A stretch of 25,031 bases of DNA from an uncultured bacterium (GCA_903938205.1 CAJACJ010000518.1:1-25031), one strand, 5' to 3'. Numbered from the stretch's first letter, positions 2,801 through 24,463 are shown. Translations and numbers: made by a program. The notes: a model not told the origin generated them from the sequence alone.

Positions 2801-2832
2801 TTCATTTCGGTTATCACTTTCATGTGACTTCA

Positions 2833-2872
2833 AACCCCGGTGCGAGCAACCCTCGCATCGGGGTTATTCTTT
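2833..2872 (+). terminator. Rho-independent terminator of the PEP-CTERM gene
   Basis: 14-bp stem AACCCCGGTGCGAG / CTCGCATCGGGGTT with one G-U pair, 5-nt loop, followed by ATTCTTT. Confidence 0.8.
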
Positions 2873-2887
2873 GGCGACTTGTTTCCC

Positions 2888-4720: not shown

Positions 4721-4778
4721 TGCATGAACACATGTATGCTTGACCTACTCACGCAACACTTGATGCAGGAACTCACCC

Positions 4779-4934: not shown

Positions 4935-5045
4935 GTGTCGTGGTTGGAAGAATTGTTTTGAATGATTGCGGTTAGAAATGTCGCCGTTGAAAATGTCGCT
5001 GGCTATGGCTCAACAACTACTCGTGGAGCGCGCAACTTGATTATT

Positions 5046-5453: not shown

Positions 5454-5493
5454 TTTCGTTGGAGTATGTCTATTCATTACTAGCACGCCAATC

Positions 5494-7772: not shown

Positions 7773-7900
7773 ATTCAATGTCAATTCATGCGATTTCATG
7801 ACTGAACATCATGGGTGACGGCGTTTCCAAGGCGAAACTAGTTTTTCAAAATTAAGGAACGCAATCAGGAAGGCGTAAAATTGAGTTGGCAATAATAGAT

Positions 7901-7920
7901 GAATAAAGTATCCTTTATTC
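7901..7920. promoter_or_regulatory. Perfect palindrome GAATAAAG-TATC-CTTTATTC upstream of the porin; candidate operator
   Basis: 8-4-8 inverted repeat ending 48 nt before the ATG, in an AT-rich intergenic region. Confidence 0.4.
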
Positions 7921-7968
7921 TTAATTAATCTATTTTTCAGAAAATTTATTTTTGTAGGAGTCAGAAGA

Positions 7969-9600
7969 ATGTTTCAAATCACATTGTCAGGGTTCCTCTC
8001 GGCCCTTGTAATTTCTGCAGCTCCGTTCGGTGGAGTCGCCCCTGGCTCCATACATGAAGATGCAACGACAGCGGCCTTGCGGGCCGAACTTGATCTTCTG
8101 CACAAATCACTTGAGCAAGTTCAAGTTGAAAACCAAGCGAACAAACAAGCGTTGACAATCAACAATCAAGAACTTTCTGAACTTAAATCACAGAATGGCG
8201 ACAAGTGGCTCACCCAAGAGCGTGCAAATCAAATCCGTGGAGTTGTGCAGGATGTCATGAGCGACGCTCAATCGCGCGCAAGTTTACAGACCACAGGCGC
8301 GACATCTGGTTACGACAATGGATTTTTTATTGCAAGTCCAGATGGCAATTTCAAACTTATGATTGGTGGACAAATGCAAGTGCGTTACGCGCTCAGTCGT
8401 TTAAGCAACAAAAGTTTGAACGATTGGAATGCCCCCAGCACTGGCAAAAATATCCAAATTGAACGCGCCGCGTATGGATTTGAGTTGCGGCGCATGAAGG
8501 TTGAATTTTCCGGACACGTGATTGATCCAAGTTGGACCTTCAAGGTGACCACGGTGTATGTCAATCAGACCGCGACTCAAAATTCGGCAGGTGTTGGTGG
8601 CATTACACCAATCGCAGGGCTTGAGGAAACGTGGATCAACAAGGATCTTGGTGGCGGACTTGGTGTGCGTGTTGGGCAGTTTAAAAGCCCATTTAATCGG
8701 GAAGAATTGGTCACTTCACGTCATCAATTATGTGTTGAACGGTCGCTCGTGAACATGCTGTTCACAACAAAGTTAACCCAGGGAATCATGCTTACGGCCC
8801 GGGGTGAAAATTTTTCTGCTGCATTCTCATTCAATGATGGCGGCAACGACGGCAACACGTCGACTGTTGATGGAAACACAAACATATCGTATGGGTACAC
8901 GCAATATGCAATGACCGGACGCGCTCAATATCTTGCGTTTGGAAATTGGAAACAGTTTGACACGCTCACGAGCGCGCGCGGCGATGCACAAGGCTTGTTA
9001 TTTGGCAGCGCGTTCAATTGGCAACGCGGTGGTGTATCAAATAACACAACGCCAACCAATGGCAACGGGGATGTAGCCATGTTTTCTTGGACCGCCGATG
9101 CAAATTGGATGTTGGGTGGTGCGAATATTTTTGGCGCGATCTACGGCAACACCGCAACCAGCGCAGCAGATGGTGGCGTTCCACTGACCAACGTTGGCAG
9201 TTCCATATTTACGTATGGTTCCACGTTGCAGGCTGGTTACTACGTAAGCGATGATGTTGAAATGTTTGGGCGTTTCGAGTGGTACGACACTTTGAGCAAC
9301 GGTTCAAATGGCCAGGCGTATGTTGCCCCTGGCGCCGTTGTGCCCGCAGTCGGCATTGCTTCTATTCCCTCCAATCCGTTTTTTGCGCAGCACAACACCA
9401 TCTATACGACAGGTTTGAATTGGTATCTCGGTGGAAAATCTCTCAAGGTGACAACTGATTGCGGATATTCGGTGAATGGCGTGATGTTTACAAATGGGTT
9501 CTATGGTCAGCCCATATCAAACGCAAATTATCGCCAAGATTCTGGCGTCAATAACGGTGGGCAGTGGGTTTTTCGCTGTCAGTTGCAGTTGCTTTTTTAA
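7969..9600 (+). CDS. Outer-membrane porin, OprO/OprP (phosphate-selective porin)-like, with periplasmic coiled-coil N-terminus
   Basis: Signal peptide, heptad-like segment, then GYDNGFFIASPDGNFKL, FELRRMKVEFSGH, VGQFKSPFNREEL, ERSLVN, and a terminal beta-signal QLQLLF. AGGAG RBS. Confidence 0.8.
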   Translation: MFQITLSGFLSALVISAAPFGGVAPGSIHEDATTAALRAELDLLHKSLEQVQVENQANKQALTINNQELSELKSQNGDKWLTQERANQIRGVVQDVMSDAQSRASLQTTGATSGYDNGFFIASPDGNFKLMIGGQMQVRYALSRLSNKSLNDWNAPSTGKNIQIERAAYGFELRRMKVEFSGHVIDPSWTFKVTTVYVNQTATQNSAGVGGITPIAGLEETWINKDLGGGLGVRVGQFKSPFNREELVTSRHQLCVERSLVNMLFTTKLTQGIMLTARGENFSAAFSFNDGGNDGNTSTVDGNTNISYGYTQYAMTGRAQYLAFGNWKQFDTLTSARGDAQGLLFGSAFNWQRGGVSNNTTPTNGNGDVAMFSWTADANWMLGGANIFGAIYGNTATSAADGGVPLTNVGSSIFTYGSTLQAGYYVSDDVEMFGRFEWYDTLSNGSNGQAYVAPGAVVPAVGIASIPSNPFFAQHNTIYTTGLNWYLGGKSLKVTTDCGYSVNGVMFTNGFYGQPISNANYRQDSGVNNGGQWVFRCQLQLLF

Positions 9601-9621
9601 GGCATAGAAAGGTGTTTCATT

Positions 9622-10362
9622 GTGAACGACACAGCATCGCTTCATTGGAAAACTGGTAGCAGCGAGCCCGCACATGAGTCCAGTGTCAGCAAAATCCAAT
9701 CGTCTATTTCAGCGCAAGAAAACATACACGCTATTCAATCAAGCGCCTCCGAGTTGGGTTGGAGCAAGTCCTTGCGCCACCGTCCCTATGAAGATGTTCA
9801 GGCCCTGATCACTGGCACTCTGTTCTCGGCTTTTGGTGTTGTCATGTTTAGCAACGCGGGGCTAGTCACCGGGGGCACGGCGGGTCTAGTGTTCTTAATT
9901 CATTATTCGACAGGATGGAATTTTGGTTTGATATTTTTTCTAATCAACCTTCCCTTTTACGCGCTCGCTTGGAAACGCATGGAAAAAGCGTTCATGTTCA
10001 AAACATTTATATCGATTGGATTGGTTTCGATGCTGGTGAATGTTTTACCCGAGTTTGTTCGTTTTAAAGAACTGTCGCCCGTGCTTGCAGCAATTCTGGG
10101 TGGTTTATTCATGGGTATGGGCATGCTTATTTTGTTTCGTCATAGGGCCAGTTTGGGTGGATTCAATGTGCTGGTGTTGTATTTACAAGAAAAATATCGG
10201 TGGCGTGCCGGTCGCGTTCAAATGTTGTTTGACAGCCTGATTGTGCTGAGTTCAATGGCTTTGGTCAGTTGGCAACAATTTGTTTTGTCGGTATTGGGCG
10301 TGGTGATTTTAAACCAAACATTAGCCACCAACTACAGGGCGGGGCGCTATTCAACGCTGTAA
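9622..10362 (+). CDS. YitT-family membrane protein
   Basis: EDVQALITGTLF, GLVTGGTAGL, INLPFY, LFRHRASLGGFNVL, AGRVQMLFD. GTG start preceded by GAAAGG. Confidence 0.85.
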   Translation: MNDTASLHWKTGSSEPAHESSVSKIQSSISAQENIHAIQSSASELGWSKSLRHRPYEDVQALITGTLFSAFGVVMFSNAGLVTGGTAGLVFLIHYSTGWNFGLIFFLINLPFYALAWKRMEKAFMFKTFISIGLVSMLVNVLPEFVRFKELSPVLAAILGGLFMGMGMLILFRHRASLGGFNVLVLYLQEKYRWRAGRVQMLFDSLIVLSSMALVSWQQFVLSVLGVVILNQTLATNYRAGRYSTL

Positions 10363-10474
10363 TTAAAACCAAGCGGCACTGTCATGTTTTCACAATACAA
10401 ATTCGTATGTGCGCGAAACTGAATGAGGTATAACCATGGTGTTCACGCCACACTTATCAGAAAGGGTAGAACCA

Positions 10475-10882
10475 ATGTCCGTCAAGAAAAAAACTAAATC
10501 ACCGCACAAATTAAATTCGCGCTCGACCGTCAAAGTAAAGCCATCCAAAGAAGTTTCCTCACTGCCTGAAACTTTCAAGAAATTTGCAGCACGCTTTCCA
10601 GAGTTAACCAGTGCCCATGAAAAAATGGGCAAATCAATTTCTGTTGCAGGTTCGCTTTCAAAGCGAGAGCAAACTCTTGTCAAGATTGGATTGTGTGTTG
10701 GCGCAGGCATGGAGTCGGCGTTGCGCAGCCATGTTCGACGTGCTTTACAGGGTGGAATTTCGGTTCGTGAAATAGAGCACGCAGTTGCCCAGGCCATGAC
10801 CACGCTTGGATTTCCGCGCACGGTTCAGGCATGGAGTTGGGCGCACATTCAAATTGAACGCAGCGCGCGCAGCACTCTTTAA
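10475..10882 (+). CDS. Carboxymuconolactone decarboxylase (CMD/AhpD-like) family protein without CxxC
   Basis: LSKREQTLVKIGL, ALRSHVRRALQGG, EIEHAV, TTLGFP. Lys-rich N-terminal extension. Start set at ATG 10475 after GAAAGGG; the frame is open from 10436. Confidence 0.8.
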   Translation: MSVKKKTKSPHKLNSRSTVKVKPSKEVSSLPETFKKFAARFPELTSAHEKMGKSISVAGSLSKREQTLVKIGLCVGAGMESALRSHVRRALQGGISVREIEHAVAQAMTTLGFPRTVQAWSWAHIQIERSARSTL

Positions 10883-10924
10883 GAAGCGAAAGCTCGCCCA
10901 TTATATAAAGTCCGAATAATTACA

Positions 10925-10938
10925 CTGATTTTGATCAA
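10925..10938. promoter_or_regulatory. FNR/DNR-type (Crp-Fnr) box CTGAT-TTTG-ATCAA
   Basis: 9 of 10 matches to TTGAT-N4-ATCAA, upstream of ric and the oxidoreductase operon. Confidence 0.55.
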
Positions 10939-10975
10939 TTTTAAGAGTATTGAGTAAAATATTCAGGAATCCGCC

Positions 10976-11003
10976 TTGCAAGCAAGAGTTCACCCGCTAC
11001 AAT
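10976..11003 (+). promoter_or_regulatory. Candidate sigma70 promoter TTGCAA-N16-TACAAT for the ric/oxidoreductase operon
   Basis: -35 at 10976-10981 and -10 at 10998-11003, about 80 nt upstream of the ric ATG. Confidence 0.5.
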
Positions 11004-11017
11004 TTAAGAGAATAATA

Positions 11018-11039
11018 TCTTTTTATCTGTATATAAAGA
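11018..11039. promoter_or_regulatory. Inverted repeat TCTTTTTAT-CTGT-ATATAAAGA; candidate repressor operator
   Basis: 8 of 9 arm symmetry, located just downstream of the predicted transcription start. Confidence 0.4.
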
Positions 11040-11084
11040 GTCAGAATAAGTTTGCCGTCAATACAACTTTTTGAAAGGTCGCAC

Positions 11085-11792
11085 ATGGAACCAATTACTT
11101 TAACGCCCGCAAATTCCGTGGGTCAATGGGCTGCTTCTTCGCCGGCCGCTGCCCGCACCTTAGCTGACATTGGTCTTGATATTTGCTGTGGCGGAAAGCG
11201 TGCGCTGCTCGATGCGTGTCGTGAAAAAAATATGGATCCATCCGATGTGGTGCAAAAAGTGTGCGCGGCACAAAATGCGCGCCAGGCTGATGGAGAAAGT
11301 GATCCAGCTCTCATGCCATTAGCAGAGTTAACACAGCACATTGTGGATACGCATCATGCGTATTTGCGACAAGCGTTGCCTCGTATCGAATATTGGATAG
11401 AAAAAATGGTCAAGGCTCATGGCGACAAGAATCCATCTTTCAGCGAATTGCTTGATGTGTTTAAGGGTTTACATATTGAAATGCAAACACACATGGACAA
11501 AGAGGAAAATATTTTGTTCCCAATAGCGGCGGCTATGGAATGCGGTATTCGACCCGCCATGAATTTAATGTATCCCGTGGCGTGCATGGAGCAAGATCAC
11601 CAAGAAGCTGGTTTGGCTCTTGCTCGGATCAAGGAACTCACAAGAAGTTTTTCTGCACCGCCCAACGCGTGCACGACATGGCGAGCAGCCTATTCAGCAT
11701 TGGCAGAATTAGATGCAGACATGCACCGCCATGTTCATAAAGAAAATAATGTTTTATTTCCACGCATTATTGAAATGCAAAAAATGAATTGA
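11085..11792 (+). CDS. ric: Iron-sulfur cluster repair di-iron protein (Ric/YtfE/ScdA)
   Basis: N-terminal DICCGG and hemerythrin-like ligands HHAYLR, HMDKEENILFP, MEQDH, HVHKENNVLFP. Start at ATG 11085 after GAAAGG. Confidence 0.9.
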   Translation: MEPITLTPANSVGQWAASSPAAARTLADIGLDICCGGKRALLDACREKNMDPSDVVQKVCAAQNARQADGESDPALMPLAELTQHIVDTHHAYLRQALPRIEYWIEKMVKAHGDKNPSFSELLDVFKGLHIEMQTHMDKEENILFPIAAAMECGIRPAMNLMYPVACMEQDHQEAGLALARIKELTRSFSAPPNACTTWRAAYSALAELDADMHRHVHKENNVLFPRIIEMQKMN

Positions 11793-11834
11793 ACACTGCT
11801 CAAGTTTAAAATTGAAATTAAAACAAGAACGCAC

Positions 11835-14800
11835 ATGAACAAGCCTTTACCAATGGTTTCCCGGAGAAACTTTCTAAGCACTCTTGCCGCCACAAGCATC
11901 AGTTCGTTGGCTATCAGTAGGCATGCAATGGCTGCCATCGGCGCATTGACGCCCATGGATGTCGCCAATCCATTAGCCGCATATCCAAACCGTGATTGGG
12001 AAAAGGTGTATCGCAATCTGTATAAACATGACTCTTCATTTGTGTTCATGTGCGCGCCCAACGACACGCATAATTGTTTGTTGCGGGGATTTGTGAAGAA
12101 CGGCGTGGTGACTCGTATTGGTCCAAGTTGGGGCTACAACAAGGCCACCGATCTAGCAGGAAATAAAGCAAGCGCGCGTTGGGATCCGCGATGTTGTCAA
12201 AAAGGAATCGCGCTTGCCAGAAGATTTTATGGCGACCGCCGCATTAAAGAACCATTAGTTCGTCAAGGAATGCTGGATTGGCTTCAAGCGGGCAAGCCGC
12301 GCGGTACTGATGGAGCCATCGATCCGAAATATTTGAAGCGTGGTCACGATTCATTTGTGCCAGTGACTTGGGAAAAAGCGTTCGAAGCGACCGCTGAAAC
12401 AATGGTGGACATTGCCAAGACCTACAACGGAAAACAAGGCCAAGAAAAATTACTTGCGCAGGGGTATGACCCGCTCATGGTTGAAACAACAGGCGGCGCG
12501 GGCACACAAGTGATGAAGTTTCGTGGCGGTATGCCGCTCCTTGGATTGACGCGCGTGATGGCGCAGTACCGTCTTGCCAACAGCATGGCGCTTTTGGACA
12601 GCACGTTGCGCGGAGTCGGCCCTGACCAAGCGGTTGGTGCGCGCGGCTTTGATAATTATTCATGGCACACGGATCTTCCGCCAGGACACCCAATGGTCAC
12701 TGGTCAGCAGACCAATGATTTTGATTTGTGCATGGTTGAACACAGCAAAATGGTGATTGTGTGGGGTATGAATTGGATCGCAACCAAAATGCCGGACAGT
12801 CATTGGCTGACGGAAGCCAGAATGAAGGGCACGAAAGTTGTTGTGATTGCTTGCGAATATTCCGCCACGGCAAACAAGTCAGACGAGTTGATTGTTGTGC
12901 GGCCTGGAACCACGCCCGCGCTTGCGCTTGGATTGGCGCAAGTCATCATGAGTGAAAAACTCTATGACGACGCTTTTGTGCGCCGCCACACGGATCTACC
13001 GCTATTGATTCGTTTGGATAACGGAAAAATGTTGCGCGCCGCGGAGGTGTTCCCTGGATATCAAGCGGCGGTATTGACCAATGGAATCACCGTAGTCAAA
13101 ACAGGTGAAAAACCACCAAGTACGTTGGAGCAATCGGGTGCGTTTGTGTCGCAGGAAAAACGAGCGGAGTGGGGCGACTATGTTGCTTATGACGATGTGG
13201 CCAAAAAGCCAGTGGCGGTGAATCGCGACCAGGTTGGTGACAAGGCAAACGCGCTTCCCAAAGGGTTGGCGTTGGACATTCGCACAAAAATAAAGTTGGC
13301 CGATGGCGGCGAAGTGGAATGCGCCACTGTTTGGAACGCCACCAAGCAAATGCTTGACAACGCGTACACGCCAGATTCCGTGGAGAAATTAACGTGGGCT
13401 AAGGCGGAGGCCATTCAAAGCTTGGCGCGACAAATTGCGGTCAACTCTGGCGCCGTTGCTTTCGCATGCGGCATGGGTCCCAATCAGTTCTTCAACAGCG
13501 ACCTGAAGGACCGCGGCGTGTTTCTTGTTGCCGCGCTCACTGGCAATGTTGGTAAAAAAGGCGGAAATGTAGGCAGTTATGCGGGTAATTATCGCATTGC
13601 CTATATGAGCGGCTTGCCGCAGTACATCTTGGAAAATCCATTTGATATTGAACTTGATCCCACAAAGCCAGCGCGCTCCAAGCGTTATTGGAAACCTGAA
13701 AGCGTTCATTACTTCAACCACGGCGACATGATTTTGCGCAAAGGCAAAGCTGTGTTGACAGGTAAGACGCATTTGCCAACGCCGACAAAGTCAGTGTGTG
13801 TTTCCAACTCCAACAGTTTGATTGGAAATGTAAAGGGGCACTATGACTTTGTTATTAACACATTGAAGCGCGTGGAATTGATCGCCATCAATGAGTGGTG
13901 GTGGACCGCTTCCTGCGAATATGCGGATGTTGTATTTCCTGTCGATAGCTGGGCGGAGTTTCGCTATCCAGACATGACCATGTCGGTCACGAATCCGTTT
14001 GTGCAAGTGTTTCCAACTTCTCCGTTGCCGCGCATTCACAACACGCGCGGCGATATTGAAGTGGCGAAGGGTCTTGGCGAAGCCATTGGAAAACTGACAA
14101 ATGATTCGCGGCATGCGGACTATTGGAAATTCATCAATGAAAAAGATCGCGCGTTGCCTTATTTGCAACGCATGATGGATCAGTCCAACGCCATGCGTGG
14201 TTACAAAATTGAGGCCTTGGAAAAGAATGCGGAGCTTGGCATTCCGGCGATTCTGAACACGCGCACTTATCCAAAGTATTCAAGCTTTGAGCAAATTGAG
14301 GAGTCAAAGCCGTGGTATACAAAAACTGGTCGTTTGGAATTTTATCGCGAAGAAGCTGAATTCCAAGATGCCGGAGAGAACGTGGTCATTCATCGCGAGC
14401 CGATTGACTCCACTCCATACGATCCGGCTTCATTGGTGTCGGCGCCACATCCATTGTTGCGGCCCAAGTCACCAGAAGATTACGGAACAAAAACTTCCGA
14501 TCGCGACGCTGATTCGCGTCAAGCACGGCATGTGATTTACACCACTGATGAGTTGCTTCAAACAGCGCATCCCTTGACCGAGCATGATCCGAATTACCGA
14601 TTTGTTTTTCACACGCCAAAATATCGCCATGGAGCACACAGTACTCCCGTTGATCTAGACATTATCGCGGTTTGGTTTGGTCCCTTTGGCGACATGCATC
14701 GCCGCGACAAGCGAATGCCATTTGTGAATGAGGCATACGTAGATATCAATCCCCTTGATGGCAAGTCGCTTGGTGTTGAGGATGGTGATTATGTTTTTAT

Positions 14801-15377
14801 TGACGCCGATCCGCACGATCGACCGTTCAAAGGTTGGCAAAATAATCCAGAGGGATACGCCGTGGCGCGTTTGATTGCGCGCGCCCGTTATTACCCAGGC
14901 ACGCCGCGTGGAATTACACGCATGTGGCACAACATGTATGGCGCAACATTTAGTTCCGTGGCGGCGGCGAAGGTACGAGCGGATGGTTTGGCAAAATCCA
15001 AGGACACGAATTATCAAGCCAGTTTCCGCTCCGGTTCGCATCAAAGTTGCACGCGTGGTTGGCTCAAACCAACATGGATGACGGATTCATTGGTGGTGAA
15101 GGAGTTGCTGAATCAAGGCATTACTCAAGGATTTGTTCCTGACGTGCATTGTCCAGTCGGTGCTCCTCGTGAATCAATGGTGCGCATCACCAAGGCGGAA
15201 AATGGCGGACTCGGTGGCGAAGGAATTTGGTCGCCAGAGACTCTTGGATATCGCCCCACGTATGAAAGTGACGCGATGAAAAAATTTATTCTTGGAGGAT
15301 TTGTGACTCGTTCATTCATGGCGAAAGTCACAAGCCCGCTTGTTGTTCCAATCACAAAAATTACTTCTCCAATGTAA
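11835..15377 (+). CDS. narG/nxrA: Type II DMSO-reductase-family Mo-bisPGD catalytic subunit, Tat-exported periplasmic nitrate reductase / nitrite oxidoreductase alpha
   Basis: Tat signal SRRNFL..HAMA. FS0 motif C73-APN-D77-THN-C81...RC-C121-QKG. NYSWHT-D280-LPPGHP Mo-ligand region, [30 protein letters not shown]. The fold family is certain; the reaction direction is not. Confidence 0.92.
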
Positions 15378-15386
15378 GAAGCCACC

Positions 15387-16514
15387 ATGCCAAAGATTTT
15401 CAATAAACAGATTGATCGTGAAATGGATTATCCGTACGAAGCCTCGCCACCGAAGCGGCAGGTGGCGTACATATTTGACACCAACAAATGTATCGCGTGT
15501 CAGACCTGCACCATTGCGTGCAAGACATGTTGGACATCCGGCCGCGGGCAAGAACATATTTTCTACAACAACGTGGAGACCAAACCATACGGAAGTTATC
15601 CAATGGGTTGGGATACAAAATTACAAGAGCAGCGTGTGCAGGTGACGTGGAACAACAAGCGTTTGGAGTCGCCAACTATTTTCGAAGGCAATTCACCCAA
15701 TTCTCCGCCAGATGGTTGGCGTCCAACAAGTGAGGATTACGCGCATCCAAATCATGGTGAAGATGACATCTCTGGCATCATCGAGAAGACCGCGCACTTT
15801 GCTGGTGAGCACCCCATGTGGATGTTTTATTTGGCGCGCATTTGCAACCATTGCACAACTCCCGCGTGCCTGGCGGCTTGTCCGCGCAAGGCCATTTACA
15901 AGCGTGAAGAAGATGGCATTGTGTTGGTGGATCAGGAACGCTGCCGTGGATATCAAGAATGTGTTCGCGCGTGTCCATATAAGAAAGTTTTTTACAACGC
16001 AGTGAGTCGCGCCAGCGAAAAATGCATTGGCTGTTTTCCGCGTGTGGAGCAAGGCTTGCAGGCTTTGTGCGTGGAAGGCTGTATTGGAAAAATCCGCATG
16101 CATGGATTTATTTCAACGCAGACGCCTCCGCGTGAGGACAATCCGCTTGACTACATCATTCACATTCGAAAGTTGGCGCTTCCGCTGTATCCACAATTTG
16201 GAACTGGTCCAAATGTGTATTACGTGCCGCCTATCCATGTACCGATTGGGTTTTGTGAGCAACTCTTTGGTCCAGGTGTGGAGGAGTCTGTTTCGTTGTA
16301 TCGCAAACTGAAAGACGATCCAAAATTGCTTGGAGCATTGTTCCTATTTGGTTCCACTGATCACATCATTGAGCATTTTGAGGTGAAGGACCAAGTTGCA
16401 ATTGGTTGGAACGCCAAAGGTGATGAAGTTTCTCGCGTTCCGTTCACTGAATACACCTATGTGCGTCCACACCATGACAAAGAATTTCAGGTGTACAGGC
16501 ATAACACGGCTTGA
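15387..16514 (+). CDS. narH/nxrB: Fe-S beta subunit of the type II molybdoenzyme
   Basis: CIACQTCTIAC, CNHCTTPACLAAC, CRGYQECVRAC, CIGCFPR..LCVEGC (3x[4Fe-4S] plus [3Fe-4S] pattern), and PLYPQFGTGPNVYY. No signal peptide, consistent with Tat co-export with alpha. Confidence 0.93.
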   Translation: MPKIFNKQIDREMDYPYEASPPKRQVAYIFDTNKCIACQTCTIACKTCWTSGRGQEHIFYNNVETKPYGSYPMGWDTKLQEQRVQVTWNNKRLESPTIFEGNSPNSPPDGWRPTSEDYAHPNHGEDDISGIIEKTAHFAGEHPMWMFYLARICNHCTTPACLAACPRKAIYKREEDGIVLVDQERCRGYQECVRACPYKKVFYNAVSRASEKCIGCFPRVEQGLQALCVEGCIGKIRMHGFISTQTPPREDNPLDYIIHIRKLALPLYPQFGTGPNVYYVPPIHVPIGFCEQLFGPGVEESVSLYRKLKDDPKLLGALFLFGSTDHIIEHFEVKDQVAIGWNAKGDEVSRVPFTEYTYVRPHHDKEFQVYRHNTA

Positions 16515-16552
16515 TTGATCAGCATATTTCACTTTTGAAATAAGGAATTCAC

Positions 16553-17500
16553 ATGACAGAAGAAATTAGTTCAAACAGAAAACGAATGCTTCCGCTGCAC
16601 GGCTTAGCGAGCGCGGTATTTTTGGTGATCGCGGCGGCGTTTGTTTGGCGCATGCCATCCAATTCCAAAGCCACAGATACCACGAAAGATATTGTGGCGG
16701 TCAGTCCATTACATGTGACAAAAATCGCAACCCTTGGTGCGCCGGATCCAACGGCTTCCTATTGGAAATCCGCGACCGTTGCGGTGATTCCATTGCTTCC
16801 GCAAACAATCACCAAGCCCACAATTGAAAAATCGGAAATACATTCAATGGAAGTCCAGGCCGTGAGTGACGGGACAAATATTGCATGGCGACTTGCGTGG
16901 GCGGATCCCGAGGCCGACTCCGCGGTGGATTCTGGAAAATTTTCAGATGCGTGCGCCATTCAATTTCCAATTGGAACCAATACAAATTTAATGATGGGTC
17001 ATGGTGGCGAAGTTGAGATTTTCTTGTGGAAAGCGATTTGGCAGCGAGATGTGAATCTTGGATTTCAAGATATTCGCGACCTGCATCCAAATGCATGGAC
17101 CGATTTGTATTGGTTTTCCAAAGGCGGACTTGAAACAAATATAAATGACGCGTTCGCGGATCCGCGAGCCAAGCAATGGATGATTGCGTTGACTGCGGGA
17201 AATCCAATGAGTCAAATGGATCGCAAACAACCTTGCGAAGAATGCACGGCGAAAGGCTTTGGAACAATCGCCACACAGGCACAGCAATCATCACAAGCCG
17301 TTGGTATCTGGGCTGGCGGGCAATGGGCCGTTGTTTTTCAACGACCCCTTCGCACAGAAGATGTCTCGGATTATCAATTTGGACTTCACGCATCAGAGTT
17401 TGCGCTTGCTGTCTGGCAAGGCAGCGCCAAACAAGCTGGCGGTCGTAAGCAATTTTCTGGATGGGTTCCATTTGAATTGCCGAACGGAAATATCAAATGA
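16553..17500 (+). CDS. Gamma subunit: ethylbenzene dehydrogenase-like (EbdC/NxrC) heme b DOMON-type protein with an N-terminal membrane anchor
   Basis: One N-terminal TM segment, FSDACAIQFP, LMMG (candidate Met ligand), AKGFGT, WAVVFQRPL, ALAVWQGS..GGRKQFSGW (candidate Lys ligand). Confidence 0.85.
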   Translation: MTEEISSNRKRMLPLHGLASAVFLVIAAAFVWRMPSNSKATDTTKDIVAVSPLHVTKIATLGAPDPTASYWKSATVAVIPLLPQTITKPTIEKSEIHSMEVQAVSDGTNIAWRLAWADPEADSAVDSGKFSDACAIQFPIGTNTNLMMGHGGEVEIFLWKAIWQRDVNLGFQDIRDLHPNAWTDLYWFSKGGLETNINDAFADPRAKQWMIALTAGNPMSQMDRKQPCEECTAKGFGTIATQAQQSSQAVGIWAGGQWAVVFQRPLRTEDVSDYQFGLHASEFALAVWQGSAKQAGGRKQFSGWVPFELPNGNIK

Positions 17501-18225
17501 ACGACTCGATCAAATCCTATGCCACGGCTGATCTTTTGATGCTTCTGACAAGCGCGATTGCTGGAAAGCAATCAGAGGATCAAAATCCAAGCCATGATGA
17601 ACTGCAGGAGTTGGTTCGTTATGCGCAATTGCCAGACGATGTGATAGGCCCAATGCAAGAAGCGCTGCGCGCATTTCATGAAGCGCCTGCGAATGAATTG
17701 CATTTGGAACGAGGCAGATTATATTCGGCGGCGCAAGCGTGTCCGCCATACGAGGCCGCGTATGTGCGCCGCGACAAGGGCGCATTACTAGCGGATATCG
17801 CCGGATTTTACCATGCATTTGGTTTGCATTTGGATGAGCATGTCCATGAACGTCCCGACCATATTGTGATGGAATTGGAATTTCTTGCGTTGGCATTTGT
17901 CATGCTTGGAAATGCGCAAAAAGATGGAAACAGCGATGGTCTGGCGGTGTGTTGGCACTCCATTGCATTGTTTGCCAACGAACATCTTGGTGAGTGGATT
18001 GAATCGTTTGCCACAGTGCTCAGCGCGACAAGTACGGATGACGTGCATCCACGTATAGCCCATGCGGTTGGAGTTTTCTGGGAAGCCTTGCGCGAGCGGG
18101 AGTGTTGGTCAAAACCAAGTTGCCCTGGAATTGCTCCCGATATTCAGAACAAAAATGAACATGACAGTCAATGGGATTGCGTTGGCGCCCAAGAAAATGT
18201 TTGTGAAAAGGAGATTCAATCATGA
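17497..18225 (+). CDS. TorD/DmsD-family molybdoenzyme maturation chaperone
   Basis: CPPYEAAY, LADIAGFYHAFGL, ERPDHIVMELEF, EHLGEW. ATGA overlaps with both neighbours. Confidence 0.88.
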   Translation: MNDSIKSYATADLLMLLTSAIAGKQSEDQNPSHDELQELVRYAQLPDDVIGPMQEALRAFHEAPANELHLERGRLYSAAQACPPYEAAYVRRDKGALLADIAGFYHAFGLHLDEHVHERPDHIVMELEFLALAFVMLGNAQKDGNSDGLAVCWHSIALFANEHLGEWIESFATVLSATSTDDVHPRIAHAVGVFWEALRERECWSKPSCPGIAPDIQNKNEHDSQWDCVGAQENVCEKEIQS

Positions 18226-19004
18226 GTGAAGAAGATCATCAATTTTCCCAAGCACAGCAGGCAACTCACCCCGCGCGAAAAATTGTCTTTGGCAGCCTGA
18301 TTAGCTTAAGTGTTTTGCCCATTGCAATGCTGCTTATTGCCGTGCTGTGGAGCGTAAAGCCAATGATGAAACAGTCATCTGCGCAAAATGATGCGGCTCA
18401 AGAAAGTGCGGCCACCAACGGACATGCAAAAGGCGCGCTGATTAATTTTGCGACATGCGCAACGTGCCACGGCGTGAATGGTGAAGGAAATGCAAAAATG
18501 CATGCCCCGCGAATAGCGGATCTTCCGCCTTGGTATGTGAAAGCGCAACTCGAAAAATTTCAAAACGGCTTACGCGGCGTGAATCCAACCGATGTCTATG
18601 GCCAGACCATGCGGCCAATGGCGCTGCAAGTGCAGGATGTGGACGCGATGGCGAAGATTGTCTCTGATTTAGAGGGACATCGCGGACGATTTGCGCCCGC
18701 GGGACCAGTCATTGCAGGCAATGTTGATCATGGTCGAGTTTTATATGCACAGTGCGTGGCCTGTCATGGCGTAAACGGCTTGGGTGAGCGTGGCGTGAAA
18801 AGTCCCACGATTGCGGGGCAAGAAAGTTGGTACGTGCAACAACAGTTAATGAATTTCCGAAGTGGTACTCGTGGAATTTCTACTGCGGACCGGGAGGGAA
18901 ATTTAATGAGGATCATTGTCGCTCCTCTCAGTGATGCAGACATTGCTGACTTGGCGATTTTTGTGAACGCAATGGGGAATAAAAAAACTGTGACGCAACA
19001 ATGA
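18222..19004 (+). CDS. Membrane-anchored diheme cytochrome c, c4 family
   Basis: N-terminal TM helix, CATCH and CVACH, repeated PxIA...WY..QL.xF..G.R pattern, and a distal Met in each domain. Confidence 0.9.
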   Translation: MSEEDHQFSQAQQATHPARKIVFGSLISLSVLPIAMLLIAVLWSVKPMMKQSSAQNDAAQESAATNGHAKGALINFATCATCHGVNGEGNAKMHAPRIADLPPWYVKAQLEKFQNGLRGVNPTDVYGQTMRPMALQVQDVDAMAKIVSDLEGHRGRFAPAGPVIAGNVDHGRVLYAQCVACHGVNGLGERGVKSPTIAGQESWYVQQQLMNFRSGTRGISTADREGNLMRIIVAPLSDADIADLAIFVNAMGNKKTVTQQ

Positions 19005-20824
19005 TCAAAGTCACTGGCGTGCCACACACATTTCATATACCGGTGATGGGGTTGGCCTACACCATTGATACCCCGATTAAAGTCGCGCGATTTGGAATTG
19101 CGTCTGTGATTTCGATTATCGAAGATCGATTGGTAGAGATGATGAGAAGTTATTACTACCCCACACTCAACTTGGAATATAAACCCATTTCGGGACACGA
19201 GGACGATTCTCGAGCAAAACGAATCACTGATTATTTAAATCTGGTGAACACGATTGTGCAGGGCCAATTTGAAAAATTAAGAAACGCAACGTTTGAGGCT
19301 GGTTCTGAAATCGTAAAATATTTTGAATTGCTTCCCGACGACAGCTCTTTGAAATTGTTGTACCGAAAAATGATGCGGTGTAGCGACGAGCTTGAAAAGT
19401 TGGAAATGGCGAATTTTTTACGCAAGCACATGCGTCCCGGAAGCATTGATGTGAACATCATGACAAAATTGGATCGGGAAAAGTATGTCAAAAATGGCGA
19501 TGGGGTTGTGAAAGAAGATGCTTCGGATGCGGTGGCGGCGCTTCGTGGATACGCAAAAAGCGACCTTTCAAATTCATCGGTCGTTTTTTCGGCTGGGATC
19601 AATCCAAGACTTTTTAATTACTTGGCCAGCCGCAAGGAATTCGAAATGAACTCGGACGGTGAATTCACAAAGAAAGTTGTTGTGAAGGTGAGTGATTATC
19701 GTTCTGCGTTGATACAGGGGAAATATCTTGCCAAGCGCGGTATTTGGGTTAGTGAATTCAGAATTGAATCCGGACTGAATTGTGGCGGGCACGCATTCGC
19801 GACCGATGGTTTTTTGCTTGGCCCAATTCTTGAGGAATTTAAAACCAAGAAGCAAGAACTCATTGACACGTTGTTTCAAACATACGGCATTTCAATTTTG
19901 AAAAAGGGCTCCGTGCAATGTGAGCAAGCTCCTCCAATTCGAATTTCGGTGCAAGGCGGAATTGGGACCCGTGATGAGGATCTTTTTTTACACCAGTATT
20001 ACAAGGTCCAAAGCACCGGATGGGGAACCCCATTTTTACTGGTGCCCGAAGCGACAACGGTTGACGAAGCAACCTTGAAACTATTAAGCGCCGCGCAAGA
20101 AAAAGATATCGTGTTGAGCCATAACTCACCATTGGGGGTTCGTTTTTATTCGCTCAAGGGAACGACGGCCGACGCGGAAAAATCATTTCGTATTTGCAAT
20201 GGAAAACCGGGAAGTCCCTGCACCGAAAAACATTTGGCATTCAACACGGAATTCACAAATGAACCTATTTGCACGGCTTCTCAAAAATATCAAAAACTTA
20301 AAATCGAGCAGTTGCACACATTTCAATTGCCTCAACTCGAACATCAATCCCGTTTGAATTCCATATTGGGTAAGGAATGTCTGTGTGTTGGACTGAGCAA
20401 TTCCGCGGCAATTACTTACAACAAGGTGTTCATAAAAAAATTAAACGCCGTCACGATTTGCCCGGGTCCAAACATTGTTCATTTTTCCAAAGTGGTATCG
20501 CTGCGAACCATGGTTAATCATATTTACGGAAGAGGCAAAAGTTTGGTTTCTCCAGGCAGGCCGCACATGTTTATTGCGGAATTACGTTTATACGTCGCAT
20601 ATCTAAAGGAGCAATTCCAAGGTGGCATTCGTGTTGAAGATCACGTTCAACATAAAAAATACCTGGCGTCTTTTTATAGCAATCTGAAGAGCGGTATTTC
20701 GTATTACAAAAATTTGCCTGGCGTTTCGAAACCTTGTGGAGATCCTTTTCACAGGGATCTGGCGCGTGCTGAAATGGAATTGGATTCTTTGAACCTGCAA
20801 TATGCAACGCCTTTGAATGCGTGA
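19001..20824 (+). CDS. Conserved uncharacterised protein; predicted FMN-binding TIM-barrel oxidoreductase distantly related to the nitronate monooxygenase/FabK/FabX superfamily
   Basis: The 607-aa ORF is clear. Motifs HIPVMG, FSAG, ESGLNCGGHAF, VQGGIG, GWGTPF, SPLG, GSPC, ICTAS and KECLCVGL line up in order with NMO-type barrels. The fold call is inference. Confidence 0.7.
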   Translation: MIKVTGVPHTFHIPVMGLAYTIDTPIKVARFGIASVISIIEDRLVEMMRSYYYPTLNLEYKPISGHEDDSRAKRITDYLNLVNTIVQGQFEKLRNATFEAGSEIVKYFELLPDDSSLKLLYRKMMRCSDELEKLEMANFLRKHMRPGSIDVNIMTKLDREKYVKNGDGVVKEDASDAVAALRGYAKSDLSNSSVVFSAGINPRLFNYLASRKEFEMNSDGEFTKKVVVKVSDYRSALIQGKYLAKRGIWVSEFRIESGLNCGGHAFATDGFLLGPILEEFKTKKQELIDTLFQTYGISILKKGSVQCEQAPPIRISVQGGIGTRDEDLFLHQYYKVQSTGWGTPFLLVPEATTVDEATLKLLSAAQEKDIVLSHNSPLGVRFYSLKGTTADAEKSFRICNGKPGSPCTEKHLAFNTEFTNEPICTASQKYQKLKIEQLHTFQLPQLEHQSRLNSILGKECLCVGLSNSAAITYNKVFIKKLNAVTICPGPNIVHFSKVVSLRTMVNHIYGRGKSLVSPGRPHMFIAELRLYVAYLKEQFQGGIRVEDHVQHKKYLASFYSNLKSGISYYKNLPGVSKPCGDPFHRDLARAEMELDSLNLQYATPLNA

Positions 20825-20827
20825 TCC

Positions 20828-21505
20828 ATGAAAGACAAATCCAATTCTCATATTGTGAACGCCTTGACGCACTTGATTTCATGCGGCGATATACCTAATG
20901 ATCCGCCACAGAATCCCATGGATTTATTTCAGGAATGGTTTACGAATGCAGAGGATTGCGGTCAATATGTAAACCCAAATGCGATGACTGTTGCAACAAG
21001 CACATTGGACGGCGCGCCTTCGGCCCGAATTGTTCTATGCAAGTGCTTAGAAACGCAGCCTCCAGCGTTGGTGTTTTTCACAAGTTATGAAAGTAGAAAG
21101 GGTAGGGAAATAGAAGCAAATCCCAGGGCTGCGGCGGTGTTTCATTGGCCGCACGCCAAGCGGCAGGCGCGCGTGGAAGGAGTTGTGGAGCGCGTCTCGT
21201 CGCAAGAAAGTGACCAGTATTTTAGTTCGCGACCACTCATCTCACGCATCGGTAGTTCGGTTAGCCCACAAAGTCAGGTGATTTCTTCAAGAGCAAGCTT
21301 GGTTGCATCGGCGATTAAATTAGCGGGTCAAGCCACTCTTGCGGGAAAGCTTCCGCGTCCAGCGAATTGGGGTGGGTACAGAATTCATATTCGTGTTGTA
21401 GAACTTTGGTCGGCGCGTGAGGGCCGACTGAATGATCGCGTACGGTGGATACACGATGACTCAGATTCCACCACAAGTTGGAAAGTGACGCGGCTTGGAT
21501 CTTGA
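20828..21505 (+). CDS. pdxH: Pyridoxine/pyridoxamine 5'-phosphate oxidase family FMN protein (divergent)
   Basis: PNAMTVAT, PSARIVLCK, FFTSYESRKG, RQARVEG, YFSSRP, RPANWGGYR, and RLNDR in place of canonical RLHDR. Confidence 0.85.
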   Translation: MKDKSNSHIVNALTHLISCGDIPNDPPQNPMDLFQEWFTNAEDCGQYVNPNAMTVATSTLDGAPSARIVLCKCLETQPPALVFFTSYESRKGREIEANPRAAAVFHWPHAKRQARVEGVVERVSSQESDQYFSSRPLISRIGSSVSPQSQVISSRASLVASAIKLAGQATLAGKLPRPANWGGYRIHIRVVELWSAREGRLNDRVRWIHDDSDSTTSWKVTRLGS

Positions 21506-21550
21506 ACTGTATTTGTGAGCCGACGACTTCTCTATTGTTTGGTGACGTTG

Positions 21551-21578
21551 GAGCAATCACGGTACTCATAGATTGCTC
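21551..21578. terminator. Hairpin GAGCAATC-N12-GATTGCTC between the converging pdxH and ccoS genes
   Basis: 8-bp perfect stem with a long loop and no clear U-tract, so a weak candidate. Confidence 0.3.
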
Positions 21579-21596
21579 ATGATTACGCGTGCAAAA

Positions 21597-21776
21597 TTAT
21601 TTATTTTTTTGGCAGTCAGATTTTGTATGGATCAATGGCGCATCGTCTAGGAGCATGCGAATTGCTGGCGTATTCAGATCCTCATATTGATCGTTGTGGG
21701 CCGCCCACATAAATGCCAGCACGGCCGCTGCGGCTATGAAAAGTGCCACTGGAATGGCTATATAAATCAGAATCAT
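21597..21776 (-). CDS. ccoS: cbb3-type cytochrome oxidase assembly protein CcoS/FixS, 59 aa (not in ORF track)
   Basis: Hand translation: MILIYIAIPVALFIAAAAVLAFMWAAHNDQYEDLNTPAIRMLLDDAPLIHTKSDCQKNK. Matches the CcoS pattern IP..L...AF.WA...QY.DL..PA.R.L.DD. ATGA overlap with the ATPase stop. Confidence 0.88.
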   Translation of the reverse strand: MILIYIAIPVALFIAAAAVLAFMWAAHNDQYEDLNTPAIRMLLDDAPLIHTKSDCQKNK

Positions 21777-24463
21777 GCGTGCGCCTTGGTTGGAGATGTG
21801 TTGATTTCCAAGGCATTCTTCGCTGCAATTGGTGTCGTTGATCTTGCCGCAGACGAATTTGTTTTTTTCGTGTGAGATTGAATAATCGTCGCTGCGTTGT
21901 GAATTTCAAATCGTGGCATGCGCAACGCAACAGCCGTTACGGTCAAGCCACTGAGCGGCATCAGCACCGCAGCGATGAGTGGATTGATGACACCTGTTGC
22001 GGCAAGGGCGCCGCCGACAATGTTGTATGCCAGACTGATCGCAAAATTCACATGTATTGTTTTCATGGTTCGTTGTGCGCCATCAAGCAGTGAAACAACT
22101 TGGCCAAGTCCGCCGCCTGTCAGCGCCACATCCGCATGTTCAAGAGTGACTCGCGCGCCTTGGCGTACCGCAATGCCAACATCCGCAGCGGCCATTGCGG
22201 GCAAATCATTCACACCGTCGCCAATCATGACAATCGGACCAATGTGGTGGCTTGCCCGACATGCTGCAACAATTTCAACCTTGCGCTCGGGTGTGCATGC
22301 GCCCCACACTTGTTGATCAGGAATTTTTAACTGACAACCAATGTTTAACGCAATTTCTGTGACGTCGCCCGAGGCCATCCACATATTCCAACCGCGATTC
22401 GCTAGGTTGTTGACCAGTTCAAGTGCGTCGCTTCGAAGCGGATCACCCACGCCAATCACGGCGCATGTGACATGATCAACTGTCACAAAAACTGGTGAAA
22501 ACCCCTCGCGAATCATGTCGTGTGCGTGTGCAATCACAACGGCGTTGCTGATGTCATCGTGAATAGATGAAAATTTTTGGTTGCCAACTTTCACTTCATG
22601 ACCATTCACGATTCCAGAAATTCCGCCGCTAATCGTTTCGTGAACGTCGGTCACGATTGCGCCCAGTTGATAATGTTGTGCAATCGCTTTCGCAATTGGA
22701 TGCGTGCTTCGCGCCTCAAGAGCCGCCGCAAAATTCAAATCGGTTGATTCACCACATTCACGCAAGACGCGCATGCTGCCCTCGGTCACCGTGCCGGTTT
22801 TGTCCAGAATGATTGTTCCGCTACGCGCCAGGCGCTCAAATACATCACCACCGCGAATTAAAATTCCAATGCGCGCGGCTTTTCCAAGCGCCGCCACCAT
22901 GGTGAGCGGGGTCGCAAGACCGAGAGCGCACGGACACGTGACCACCAACATTGCGATCACAATAGAGAGGGCTCGTGTTGGATCAATAAACCACCACGCA
23001 CACCCTGTGATTGTGGTGAAAATGATGACTGCAAGTAAAAACCAACCTGCGATTCGGTTTGCAAATTCAACCACGCGCGGTCGTTCACCCGCCGCATTTT
23101 CCACCATGCGCGCAATGGCGGCCGCACGCGTGTCCACGCCGGAAGTTGTCACAAGAACTCGGACTGGATGTTGCTCTAACAATCGAACGCCCGCGAAAAT
23201 GGTTTCGCCACATTGCACCATCACTGGTCGTGATTCACCAGTGAGTAGTTGCATGTCAAAATTAGCGGCGCTATTCACAAGTGTTCCGTCGGCGCACACG
23301 GATTCACCCGCGGAAATTTCAACTATGTCACCAGGGCGCAAAGCCTCTGTTGGAATTTCTTCTATCGATTCTGCGTTTGATTCTGTTCGTGTTTCGGTTG
23401 TCGTATCAATTGACTTCAAATTGTTGTTCATCACGCGCCGAGCGGTTTGTGGAACCAGCGCGCAAATCAATTCAAGATCATGCCGTGCCGATCGTTGTTG
23501 ACGAAACTGCACAAATCGTCCAACAAGAAGCAAAAATACGAGCATGGAGACGCTTTCAAAATAAACACCCGGACGATTTGCCGCCGTCATTGCGACGCCA
23601 CCTAAAAGACCCGCCAGCAACGCAAGAGCAATAGGTAAGTCCATGTGCGGACTACGCGCGCGGATTGCGTTGAAGGCATTGGTCAGGAAAAGTTTTCCAG
23701 GCCAAAACACCGCCACCGTAGCCAACGCCACGCTTATCCACTGCAGAAATTGACGCGTTGAATCATCCATCCAAGAAAATTGCGCGCCATACAACGCGAA
23801 GGCAATCGCCATGACATTGCCACTGATGGCCCCGGCCACCGCGATATGAACCAACCACGCGCGATCCTGTCTACGCCACTCACTGCGCGAAGCGAGCGTT
23901 CCAATTGGTCGTACTTCATATCCCAACGAAGCGATGCGGGTGGCAATTGCGGACAAAGTTGTTTCGGTTGCTAGCCATTCCAGTGCGATAACGGAACGGC
24001 CAAGATCAACACGCGCGCTGAGAAGTCCTTGTTGCAAACGCGGAAGTGATTCCAGCAACCAAAGACATGCGCCGCATTTCAAACCATCAAGACGAAGTTC
24101 CGCGCGCAGTCGGCCGTTACCCAGTTGTTGAACGTGTCTTTGCTGAAAATCCGCATGGTCCAAATACAACAAAGAACCCTTTATTTGCGGTCTATTCGGC
24201 AAAAATCCATTGTCTTGTTGAAGCTTGTAATAGCCTTCCAATCCGCATTGGTGAAGCATGTGCCACACGGCTTCGCATCCTGTGCAACAAAATACTTCAG
24301 TCCTTGTTTGTGTGTTGGCTTGTGTATGCACAGTTTCAGAGAACTGCAGGTTGTTGGTTGTGACAGCATTCGTCTTGCCAGAATTGAGTTGATGGGCGCT
24401 GAAAGCGTTTGAAACAGGTAACCCGCAATGCGCGCAACAATTGGTGTTGTTCACAAATATCAT
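21773..24463 (-). CDS. ccoI: CcoI/FixI-type P1B copper-translocating ATPase
   Basis: N-terminal CAHC...FCCTGC domain, HMA GLKCGAC, TGES, CPCALGLATP, DKTGT, HP, GDGVND, YN and M..S transmembrane ligands. Followed directly by ccoS. Confidence 0.88.
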   Translation of the reverse strand: MIFVNNTNCCAHCGLPVSNAFSAHQLNSGKTNAVTTNNLQFSETVHTQANTQTRTEVFCCTGCEAVWHMLHQCGLEGYYKLQQDNGFLPNRPQIKGSLLYLDHADFQQRHVQQLGNGRLRAELRLDGLKCGACLWLLESLPRLQQGLLSARVDLGRSVIALEWLATETTLSAIATRIASLGYEVRPIGTLASRSEWRRQDRAWLVHIAVAGAISGNVMAIAFALYGAQFSWMDDSTRQFLQWISVALATVAVFWPGKLFLTNAFNAIRARSPHMDLPIALALLAGLLGGVAMTAANRPGVYFESVSMLVFLLLVGRFVQFRQQRSARHDLELICALVPQTARRVMNNNLKSIDTTTETRTESNAESIEEIPTEALRPGDIVEISAGESVCADGTLVNSAANFDMQLLTGESRPVMVQCGETIFAGVRLLEQHPVRVLVTTSGVDTRAAAIARMVENAAGERPRVVEFANRIAGWFLLAVIIFTTITGCAWWFIDPTRALSIVIAMLVVTCPCALGLATPLTMVAALGKAARIGILIRGGDVFERLARSGTIILDKTGTVTEGSMRVLRECGESTDLNFAAALEARSTHPIAKAIAQHYQLGAIVTDVHETISGGISGIVNGHEVKVGNQKFSSIHDDISNAVVIAHAHDMIREGFSPVFVTVDHVTCAVIGVGDPLRSDALELVNNLANRGWNMWMASGDVTEIALNIGCQLKIPDQQVWGACTPERKVEIVAACRASHHIGPIVMIGDGVNDLPAMAAADVGIAVRQGARVTLEHADVALTGGGLGQVVSLLDGAQRTMKTIHVNFAISLAYNIVGGALAATGVINPLIAAVLMPLSGLTVTAVALRMPRFEIHNAATIIQSHTKKTNSSAARSTTPIAAKNALEINTSPTKAHA

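Follow-up and report, generated by a model that had tools for sequence, protein, structure and literature searches.

The window analysed here is the whole contig CAJACJ010000518.1 (25,031 nucleotides; assembly GCA_903938205.1) of an uncultured lake-water bacterium. On its plus strand, at 11835-19004, it carries five genes that are predicted to encode a soluble or membrane-tethered periplasmic nitrate/nitrite oxidoreductase of the nitrite oxidoreductase (NXR) lineage. The most likely role of this enzyme is cytochrome c-fed nitrate reduction in the periplasm, an assignment that we favour with modest confidence. The five genes had been claimed by an earlier reading made from the DNA alone (the sequence-only reading), and their coordinates, hidden Markov model (HMM) matches and motifs agreed with that claim, as did the ATGA overlaps joining the last three genes, which were read at 17497-17500 (gamma/delta) and 18222-18225 (delta/cytochrome). 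The five genes stood, but the extent given to the operon was too short. A third ATGA overlap (19001-19004) joins the cytochrome gene to an open reading frame (ORF) for a 607-residue protein, and ric lies upstream of alpha across a gap of 42 nucleotides. The gene unit is larger than 11835-19004, adding ric upstream and the genes of the 607-residue protein and a PNPOx-family protein downstream:

11086-11792, plus strand: ric (YtfE/ScdA), for a di-iron protein of iron-sulfur (Fe-S) repair and nitrosative stress (TIGR03652, 226 bits, cut-off 204.7)
11835-15377, plus strand: alpha, the catalytic subunit, a molybdenum (Mo)-bisMGD protein exported by twin-arginine translocation (Tat) (PF00384; TIGR03479, DMSO_red_II_alp, 302 bits)
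15387-16514, plus strand: beta, a four-cluster Fe-S protein with no signal peptide (TIGR03478, 275 bits; PF13247)
16553-17500, plus strand: gamma, a haem b protein of the EbdC/NxrC type (PF09459 EB_dh/TIGR03477; 7b04_C, 70 bits)
17497-18225, plus strand: delta, a TorD/NarJ-type assembly chaperone (PF02613; TIGR03482)
18222-19004, plus strand: a membrane-anchored dihaem cytochrome c, c4/CcoP-like (PF00034 twice; two CxxCH motifs; N-terminal transmembrane segment)
19001-20824, plus strand: a 607-residue protein (P0004) of no assigned family, without Pfam or NCBIfam match
20828-21505, plus strand: a flavin mononucleotide oxidase of the PNPOx family, pdxH-like (TIGR00558, 205 bits)

The ATG at 11086 is the likely start of ric, and a TTG at 11052 begins the longest ORF. 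Because the order alpha-beta-gamma-delta recurs in 44-48 of the 81 related loci examined, the gene content of the operon is no chance pattern. Promoter and terminator scans of the window stayed at chance level, and an Rfam search of the window returned no family, hence no molybdenum cofactor (Moco) riboswitch.

The alpha subunit shows a Tat motif (SRRNFL, then AMA), an FS0 motif of the Cys3/Asp type (C73-APN-D77-THN-C81 plus C121) and the motif Y-SWHT-D280-x11-QT (Y-4x-D280-11x-QT), in which Asp280 is the Mo ligand. The FS0 ligands, Asp280 and Asn76 were invariant in an alignment of 14 sequences spanning 39-72% identity, and Asn76 is the counterpart of the substrate-coordinating Asn70 of Kuenenia (PMC8387239). 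The FS0 motif, the Asp ligand and the Tat signal of alpha, together with a four-cluster beta, an EbdC-type haem b gamma and a TorD-like chaperone, are the features of a type II dimethyl sulfoxide (DMSO) reductase; the corresponding alpha model, TIGR03479, was the best NCBIfam match of the window alpha, yet the score was under the model cut-off. Beta would be exported by hitch-hiking with alpha. Gamma carries an N-terminal hydrophobic segment that is a signal peptide or an anchor, and alignment to Kuenenia NXR-C showed that the haem ligands Met155 and Lys305 are conserved.

In phmmer comparisons with PDB sequences, alpha matched Kuenenia NxrA over its full length with 850 bits, compared with 166 for PcrA, about 149 for NarG and 122 for EbdA. 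Together with NarG and NapA HMM scores far below the cut-offs, this result upheld the proposal that the enzyme belongs to the periplasm-facing lineage of NXR and periplasmic nitrate reductase (pNAR) and is neither NarGHI nor NapAB. A cytoplasmic NarGHI was rejected on the TIGR01580 score (163 bits vs. a cut-off of 1084), the Tat signal of alpha, an identity of 25% to E. coli NarG over 940 aligned columns, and a window in which neither a NarI nor a NarK gene was found. NapAB was rejected with NapA models at 28-31 bits (cut-offs 904-930), and identity with EbdA with an HMM score of 149 bits (cut-off 2000).

The place of alpha in the enzyme family was evaluated using three maximum-likelihood trees: a quick-search tree of 65 rows, a tree of 40 rows supported by ultrafast bootstrap and SH-aLRT, and a tree of 44 rows in which E. 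coli NarG was the outgroup. The trees were anchored by the PDB scores of representatives; their rows were without named NxrA/NarG of Nitrospira, Nitrospina, Nitrotoga or Hydrogenobacter, and without bona fide SerA, ClrA or DdhA sequences. All three agreed on an Asp-FS0 clade (100/100) that splits into clades A and B. Clade A (100/100) holds the representative P0143, whose match to Kuenenia NxrA (7b04_B) reaches 1590 bits; that of the window alpha reaches 850. Its sister, clade B (99/98), contains the window alpha within a crown group (100/100) shared with enzymes of Thioploca, Thiomargarita, Beggiatoa, Pirellulaceae and Phycisphaeraceae, and the nearest alphas (P0006, P0007, P0009 and P0012) lie outside the Pirellulaceae/Phycisphaeraceae subgroup. 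The window alpha is 39-40% identical to the clade A representatives P0143 and P0333 and reads WHTDL instead of WHGDQ, so that its earlier placement outside the Kuenenia/Nitrospira-type clade was borne out. NarG and the PcrA-like representatives fell far outside the Asp-FS0 clade, and alpha did not group with enzymes of the perchlorate type, one of the positions that the sequence-only reading had named as its refutation. Kinship with PcrA was rejected on the same trees, in which the PcrA-like P0247 (926 bits to 5e7o) and P0256 branch outside with NarG.

Kuenenia NxrA is about 60% identical to NxrA of nitrite-oxidising bacteria (NOB) and about 40% identical to the enzymes of Nitrotoga or Hydrogenobaculum (Chicano et al. 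2021, PMC8387239). In the alignment of that paper, which was read by machine and is indicative, Nitrotoga shows SWHTDLAPGHP, and anammox bacteria and Nitrospira show WHGDQ. The Nitrotoga-like motifs noted earlier are supported in that WHTDL is printed for Nitrotoga and Hydrogenobaculum, although this agreement is indicative only. These data are consistent with a window alpha nearer the Nitrotoga-like branch, the comparison with Nitrotoga being one of short printed motifs and of the shared distance of about 40% from Kuenenia only. By sequence, the operon would belong to the 'sister clade' of Kitzinger et al. (2018, PMC6050957), in which Nitrotoga NXR stands beside putative periplasmic nitrate reductases.

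Relatives of alpha are widespread. At least 120 proteins are 64-72% identical to it, all from uncultured organisms among the matches listed, and relatives occur in more than 598 species genomes. The best 80 of these, at 55-68% identity, come from Thioploca, Thiomargarita, Parabeggiatoa, Thiosymbion, Pirellulaceae, Rubripirellula, Phycisphaeraceae, Singulisphaera, many Acidobacteriota, Myxococcota and others, with the homologues of large sulfur bacteria at 66-68%. A second alpha type, of clade A, was observed in other families of the Phycisphaerales (same-order genomes G026, G031, G032, G036 and G040), often in two copies; the one at locus L006, with the motif CAPNDTHMC, matches 7b04_B at 1433 bits. 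These clade A alphas are 39-42% identical to the window alpha, and the order therefore holds both NXR lineages. A homologue on plasmid 2 of Natronococcus occultus SP4 (NC_019976.1) was considered as a cultured anchor and rejected, since its alpha is truncated at the N-terminus and is therefore no functional reference. This clade B alpha (6995-10198; 48% identity) is missing the N-terminal region with the Tat signal and FS0 and has no annotation as a coding sequence; a beta and a TorD-like gene follow it, and ric and a gene for haem-copper oxidase subunit I are close by. This plasmid-borne haloarchaeal copy is probably in decay.

The operon is transcribed in situ. The alpha gene has near word-for-word matches in many metagenomes of lake water and freshwater, as well as in four metatranscriptomes of lakes, which come from two studies. 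The RNA contigs of these four runs were mapped to the window from 6000 to 25031, and their word depth was determined. Contigs of all four runs cover 11080-21874, a stretch in which ric is the first gene and the deepest bin in 4/4 runs and the PNPOx gene is the last. Over 21875-24414, which holds a convergent ATPase gene, three of the runs had no depth and the fourth had very little, and left of 7900 depth was low or patchy. Because the RNA cover is uneven, carry-over of DNA is argued against. Individual contigs span ric and alpha (11074-12795), beta to the cytochrome gene (16359-18331) and the junction of the cytochrome gene with the 607-residue ORF (18435-19297). The operon, ric and the two downstream genes are thus transcribed in lake water, although assembled contigs are no proof of a single transcript.

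The genes that frame the operon, and those near its relatives, bear on its function. A RIC gene lies near alpha in 14 of the 80 related loci, where Moco synthesis genes also recur, and regulators of the Rrf2 and Crp/Fnr types are found in 13 and 9 loci, respectively. The 72% identical homologue P0007 adjoins genes for NrdD (anaerobic ribonucleotide reductase), NnrS, a Crp/Fnr regulator, RIC and a NiFe hydrogenase. Neither the dihaem cytochrome of the window type nor the 607-residue gene was found beside alpha in the 80 related loci. Neither Pfam, searched at E <= 10, nor the ESM Atlas assigned the 607-residue protein to a family. Its homologues (54-68% identity) in 20 metagenome contigs never adjoin NXR genes, and 8 of the 20 lie 3-4 kb from a RIC gene. 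One such cluster (L114, 478-8806) encodes PNPOx-like, DUF6051, DUF2249-RIC, hemerythrin and DUF1858-DUF2249 proteins, a weak COX1-like ORF and Rrf2, and then the 607-residue homologue. By these neighbours, the 607-residue protein looks like an uncharacterised member of a nitric oxide (NO)-stress module. Because its homologues elsewhere sit near RIC and Rrf2 and not near NXR, the enzyme genes appear to be set in a nitrosative-stress module.

Upstream of alpha, 20-25 of the related loci carry a further gene set, with a Rieske protein in 7. Acidobacteriota are among the relatives that have it (L053, 1959-7492, and some 20 more loci): alpha is preceded on its own strand by genes encoding a flavoprotein (GltD-like, FAD/Fe-S), cytochrome b and a multihaem cytochrome c, which make up a dedicated bc-type complex that includes an NAD(P)-binding module.

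The window is contig C518 of a metagenome-assembled genome (MAG) of 2.49 Mb from lake water, which is 83% complete with 5.4% contamination. The nearest named relatives of its RpoB, at 76-79% identity, are exclusively MAGs of Phycisphaerales, Phycisphaerae and Planctomycetota, which agrees with the Phycisphaerales host proposed at the outset and rules out a known NOB or anammox genome as the source. Positions 1-7772 are syntenic with many members of the same genus at 65-96% nucleotide identity; the contig therefore belongs to the genus, and mis-binning was ruled out. From 7773 on, the sequence was found only in G007 and G016 besides the source, apart from a partial contig of G003, and the GC content drops from 0.52-0.56 to 0.43-0.50 across this boundary. 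This limited distribution and the fall in GC place the operon on an accessory island. Alpha is present in 3 of the 21 species genomes of the genus (G000, G007 and G016) at 99-100% amino-acid identity. G003 is a possible fourth carrier, with an 84% identical contig that holds the cytochrome end, the 607-residue gene, the PNPOx gene and part of the ATPase gene. The idea that the 607-residue gene is tied to the cytochrome and not to NXR, suggested by the lack of alpha in G003, was rejected: G003:C3 is just 5359 bases long, is cut off at both ends and breaks off within the cytochrome gene, which makes the missing alpha uninformative.

Other genes of the island are as follows:

7969-9600, plus strand: an outer-membrane porin of the anion-selective Porin_O_P type (PF07396, E = 4.9e-8), the first gene of the island, with low RNA depth
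9622-10362, plus strand: a YitT-family membrane protein (PF02588, E = 3.2e-35)
10436-10882, plus strand: a small protein with a weak match to PcaC, carboxymuconolactone decarboxylase (TIGR02425, 32 bits vs. a cut-off of 156)
21773-24463, minus strand: a heavy-metal P-type ATPase of the CcoI type (TIGR01525, PF12156), convergent with the operon and not part of it

The porin may provide an entry route for nitrate or nitrite. Porins also adjoin the enzyme genes elsewhere, with the Alginate_exp type in 8 of the 80 related loci (for example L054, 1591-3198), and homologues of the small protein at 10436-10882 lie beside alpha in 3 of the 80. The island continues on contig C361, which overlaps the right end of the window and encodes a fused ccoNO cbb3 oxidase and an Rrf2 regulator. 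As a whole (window 7773-25031 and C361), the island unites two low-oxygen respiratory modules, the enzyme operon and ccoI/ccoNO.

The metabolism of the host was assessed in the three carrier genomes and across the genus. No RuBisCO, acetyl-CoA synthase (ACS) or ATP-citrate lyase (ACL) citrate-binding domain was found in the three carriers; among the 21 genomes of the genus, the ACL domain gave two marginal matches (26-27 bits) in two non-carriers, one of them just above the cut-off. Searches of the genus for nirS, nirK and nrfA returned nothing above cut-off. A bc1-type cytochrome b is present in 20 of the 21 genomes, and two aa3-type oxidases and a cbb3 oxidase are also present. The genome search that the sequence-only reading had called for thus returned bc1-type cytochrome b, and neither carbon-fixation markers nor nir/nrfA genes. 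From this gene content, the host looks like an aerobic to microaerobic heterotroph.

In the nitrate-reducing role, alpha and beta would be exported by Tat after Moco insertion aided by the TorD-like delta, and would dock on the haem b gamma. When oxygen is scarce, quinol electrons would pass through the bc1 that is core to the genus to the membrane-anchored dihaem cytochrome c of the operon, and from there through haem b and five Fe-S clusters to Mo, where nitrate would be reduced to nitrite in the periplasm. Energy would be conserved at bc1. Nitrite would be released, because no nirS, nirK or nrfA was found, and RIC, perhaps with the 607-residue and PNPOx proteins, would handle the resulting nitrosative stress. 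This role is favoured by the heterotrophic host, the nitrosative-stress genes that frame the operon, the anaerobic contexts of close homologues and the bc1 feed for cytochrome c. Moreover, the large sulfur bacteria with homologues at 66-68% identity are nitrate respirers. Among cultured organisms, Hydrogenobacter pNAR has been characterised as a nitrate reductase (PMC6050957), and Thermogutta terrifontis is a nitrate reducer (PMC5673643, PMC10732223).

Several points weigh against nitrate reduction. We know of no sequence feature that fixes the direction of catalysis. The FNR-like box upstream of ric (CTGATTTTGATCAA, 10925-10938, CTGAT-N4-ATCAA) does not rise above chance, with three boxes of at most one mismatch in the window vs. 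1.6 expected and at least as many in 24 of 100 shuffles. A canonical Fnr was not identified, the sole cNMP-binding match lying in an open frame of 635 residues. Gene absences are provisional, because the carrier genomes are 77-91% complete. The high-potential Met/Lys haem b, the dedicated dihaem cytochrome c and the adjacent cbb3 oxidase are just what nitrite oxidation would need. In addition, Kuenenia NXR works in both directions (PMC8387239), and Nitrotoga, which the literature places in the same sister clade, oxidises nitrite.

The enzyme could instead be a nitrite oxidoreductase, a possibility that we regard as unlikely. Nitrite would be oxidised in the periplasm, and the nearby cbb3 oxidase would receive the electrons from haem b by way of the anchored dihaem cytochrome c, providing a heterotroph with supplementary energy (mixotrophy) or removing nitrite. 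The NXR lineage itself, the motifs in common with Nitrotoga in the machine-read alignment and the conserved Met/Lys haem b of gamma are consistent with this direction. Furthermore, the dihaem cytochrome c in the operon, of a high-potential type, and the fused ccoNO and ccoI nearby on the same island match the chain described for Nitrotoga (PMC6050957). The finding of RNA in lake-water metatranscriptomes, the water-column habitat and the lack of a detected nitrite reductase also fit. However, although cytochrome c, cbb3 and aa3 oxidases are present, no CO2-fixation pathway was found in the carriers, and without RuBisCO, ACS or ACL the host would not be a chemolithoautotroph like all known NOB. 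Nitrosative-stress genes flank the operon, and close homologues occur in anaerobic contexts. In the water column, nitrite is usually scarce relative to nitrate, and an operon found in only 3-4 of 21 species is not part of the core energy metabolism of the genus. The sequence-only reading had offered an unrecognised nitrite oxidiser as one of its two outcomes; with no CO2-fixation pathway of the NOB or anammox kind found and with nitrosative-stress genes framing the operon, this is the less likely of them.

An explicit form of nitrite oxidation, which we consider doubtful, is that some freshwater Phycisphaerales are heterotrophic (mixotrophic) aerobic nitrite oxidisers by means of an acquired island that provides NXR, the anchored dihaem cytochrome c and cbb3. 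Were this true, such Phycisphaerales would consume nitrite in lakes unrecognised, and nxrA surveys would falsely register them as 'NOB'.

It is also conceivable, but rather improbable, that oxygen sets the direction in which the enzyme runs: it would reduce nitrate in anoxic microniches and, once oxygen is back, oxidise or detoxify nitrite, with a cytochrome c pool common to bc1 and cbb3. The demonstrated bidirectionality of Kuenenia NXR (PMC8387239), the co-occurrence of bc1 and cbb3 with one dedicated cytochrome c and the presence of low-oxygen respiration genes and enzyme genes on one island speak for such use, but sequence data cannot tell it from either one-way role. Finally, another substrate such as chlorate, perchlorate, selenate or a hydrocarbon, as in other type II DMSO reductases, is suggested by family membership and the sub-cut-off TIGR03479 match and is very improbable, given the distance of alpha from the PcrA-like group and NarG in the trees, PDB scores for PcrA and EbdA far below that for NxrA, the invariant substrate-coordinating Asn (Asn70 in Kuenenia, Asn76 in the window; PMC8387239) and a window in which no chlorite dismutase gene was found.

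Compared with known systems, the predicted enzyme shares with E. coli NarGHI the superfamily, the Asp Mo ligand and the QT motif. NarGHI, in contrast, has a His-type FS0, no Tat signal, a cytoplasmic face and a NarI quinol oxidase, and it needs NarK, none of which apply to the window system. The similarity to NXR-ABC of Kuenenia stuttgartiensis (PDB 7B04; PMC8387239) is closer, covering the full length of alpha, the Cys3/Asp FS0, the substrate Asn, the Asp Mo ligand with Y-4x-D-11x-QT, a beta with Fe-S clusters and a gamma with Met/Lys haem b. However, the Kuenenia enzyme belongs to clade A, whereas that of the window belongs to clade B (99/98); WHGDQ stands against WHTDL, and the Kuenenia-like representatives in the trees are only 39-40% identical to the window alpha. 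Moreover, the window system lacks NXR-T and an anammoxosome and has its own anchored dihaem cytochrome c and ric.

Among Planctomycetota, NXR-like genes were published in 2023 for 19 non-anammox MAGs, with Thermogutta terrifontis as the nitrate-reducing reference (PMC10732223); with this report and the occurrence of the family in more than 598 species genomes, the claim that the lineage is new for the trait is not supported. The MAGs of that study, from the Oslofjord tunnel, share with the window system the phylum, the enzyme lineage and a poor annotation, as 'molybdopterin oxidoreductase'. T. terrifontis respires nitrate with a Nar whose genes lie beside bc1 genes (PMC5673643), whereas in the window host bc1 is encoded elsewhere in the genome. 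Unlike the tunnel MAGs and Thermogutta, the window case comes from lake water, and the gene is accessory in its genus.

The closest setting is the sister clade of Kitzinger et al. (2018, PMC6050957), which comprises NxrABC and the chaperone of Ca. Nitrotoga fabula, the periplasmic NAR of Hydrogenobacter thermophilus and many uncharacterised enzymes. The Tat-exported alpha, the order alpha-beta-gamma-chaperone, the WHTDL motif as in Nitrotoga and the identity of about 40% to Kuenenia are held in common with it. In contrast, Nitrotoga is an autotroph using the Calvin-Benson-Bassham cycle and the window host shows no CO2 fixation genes, and the window operon adds ric, the dihaem cytochrome c and two further genes. 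Within the sister clade, activity has been tested only for Nitrotoga, which oxidises nitrite, and Hydrogenobacter, which reduces nitrate. The enzymes of this clade are very common in metagenomes, with relatives in more than 598 species genomes, among them those of large sulfur bacteria, Acidobacteriota and Planctomycetota. Surveys that count every alpha of the NXR lineage as nxrA will therefore misassign nitrogen fluxes. Kitzinger et al. (2018, PMC6050957) had proposed that nitrite oxidisers might lie unrecognised in the sister clade, and in a study of oxygen-deficient zones most nxrA-bearing community members were Planctomycetota. The enzyme type, its presence in Planctomycetota and the question of direction are thus already published, and the general picture is unchanged. 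To this picture, the window makes modest additions: the accessory-island setting in an abundant lake genus, the in situ RNA, and the link to a module of RIC, the 607-residue protein and PNPOx.

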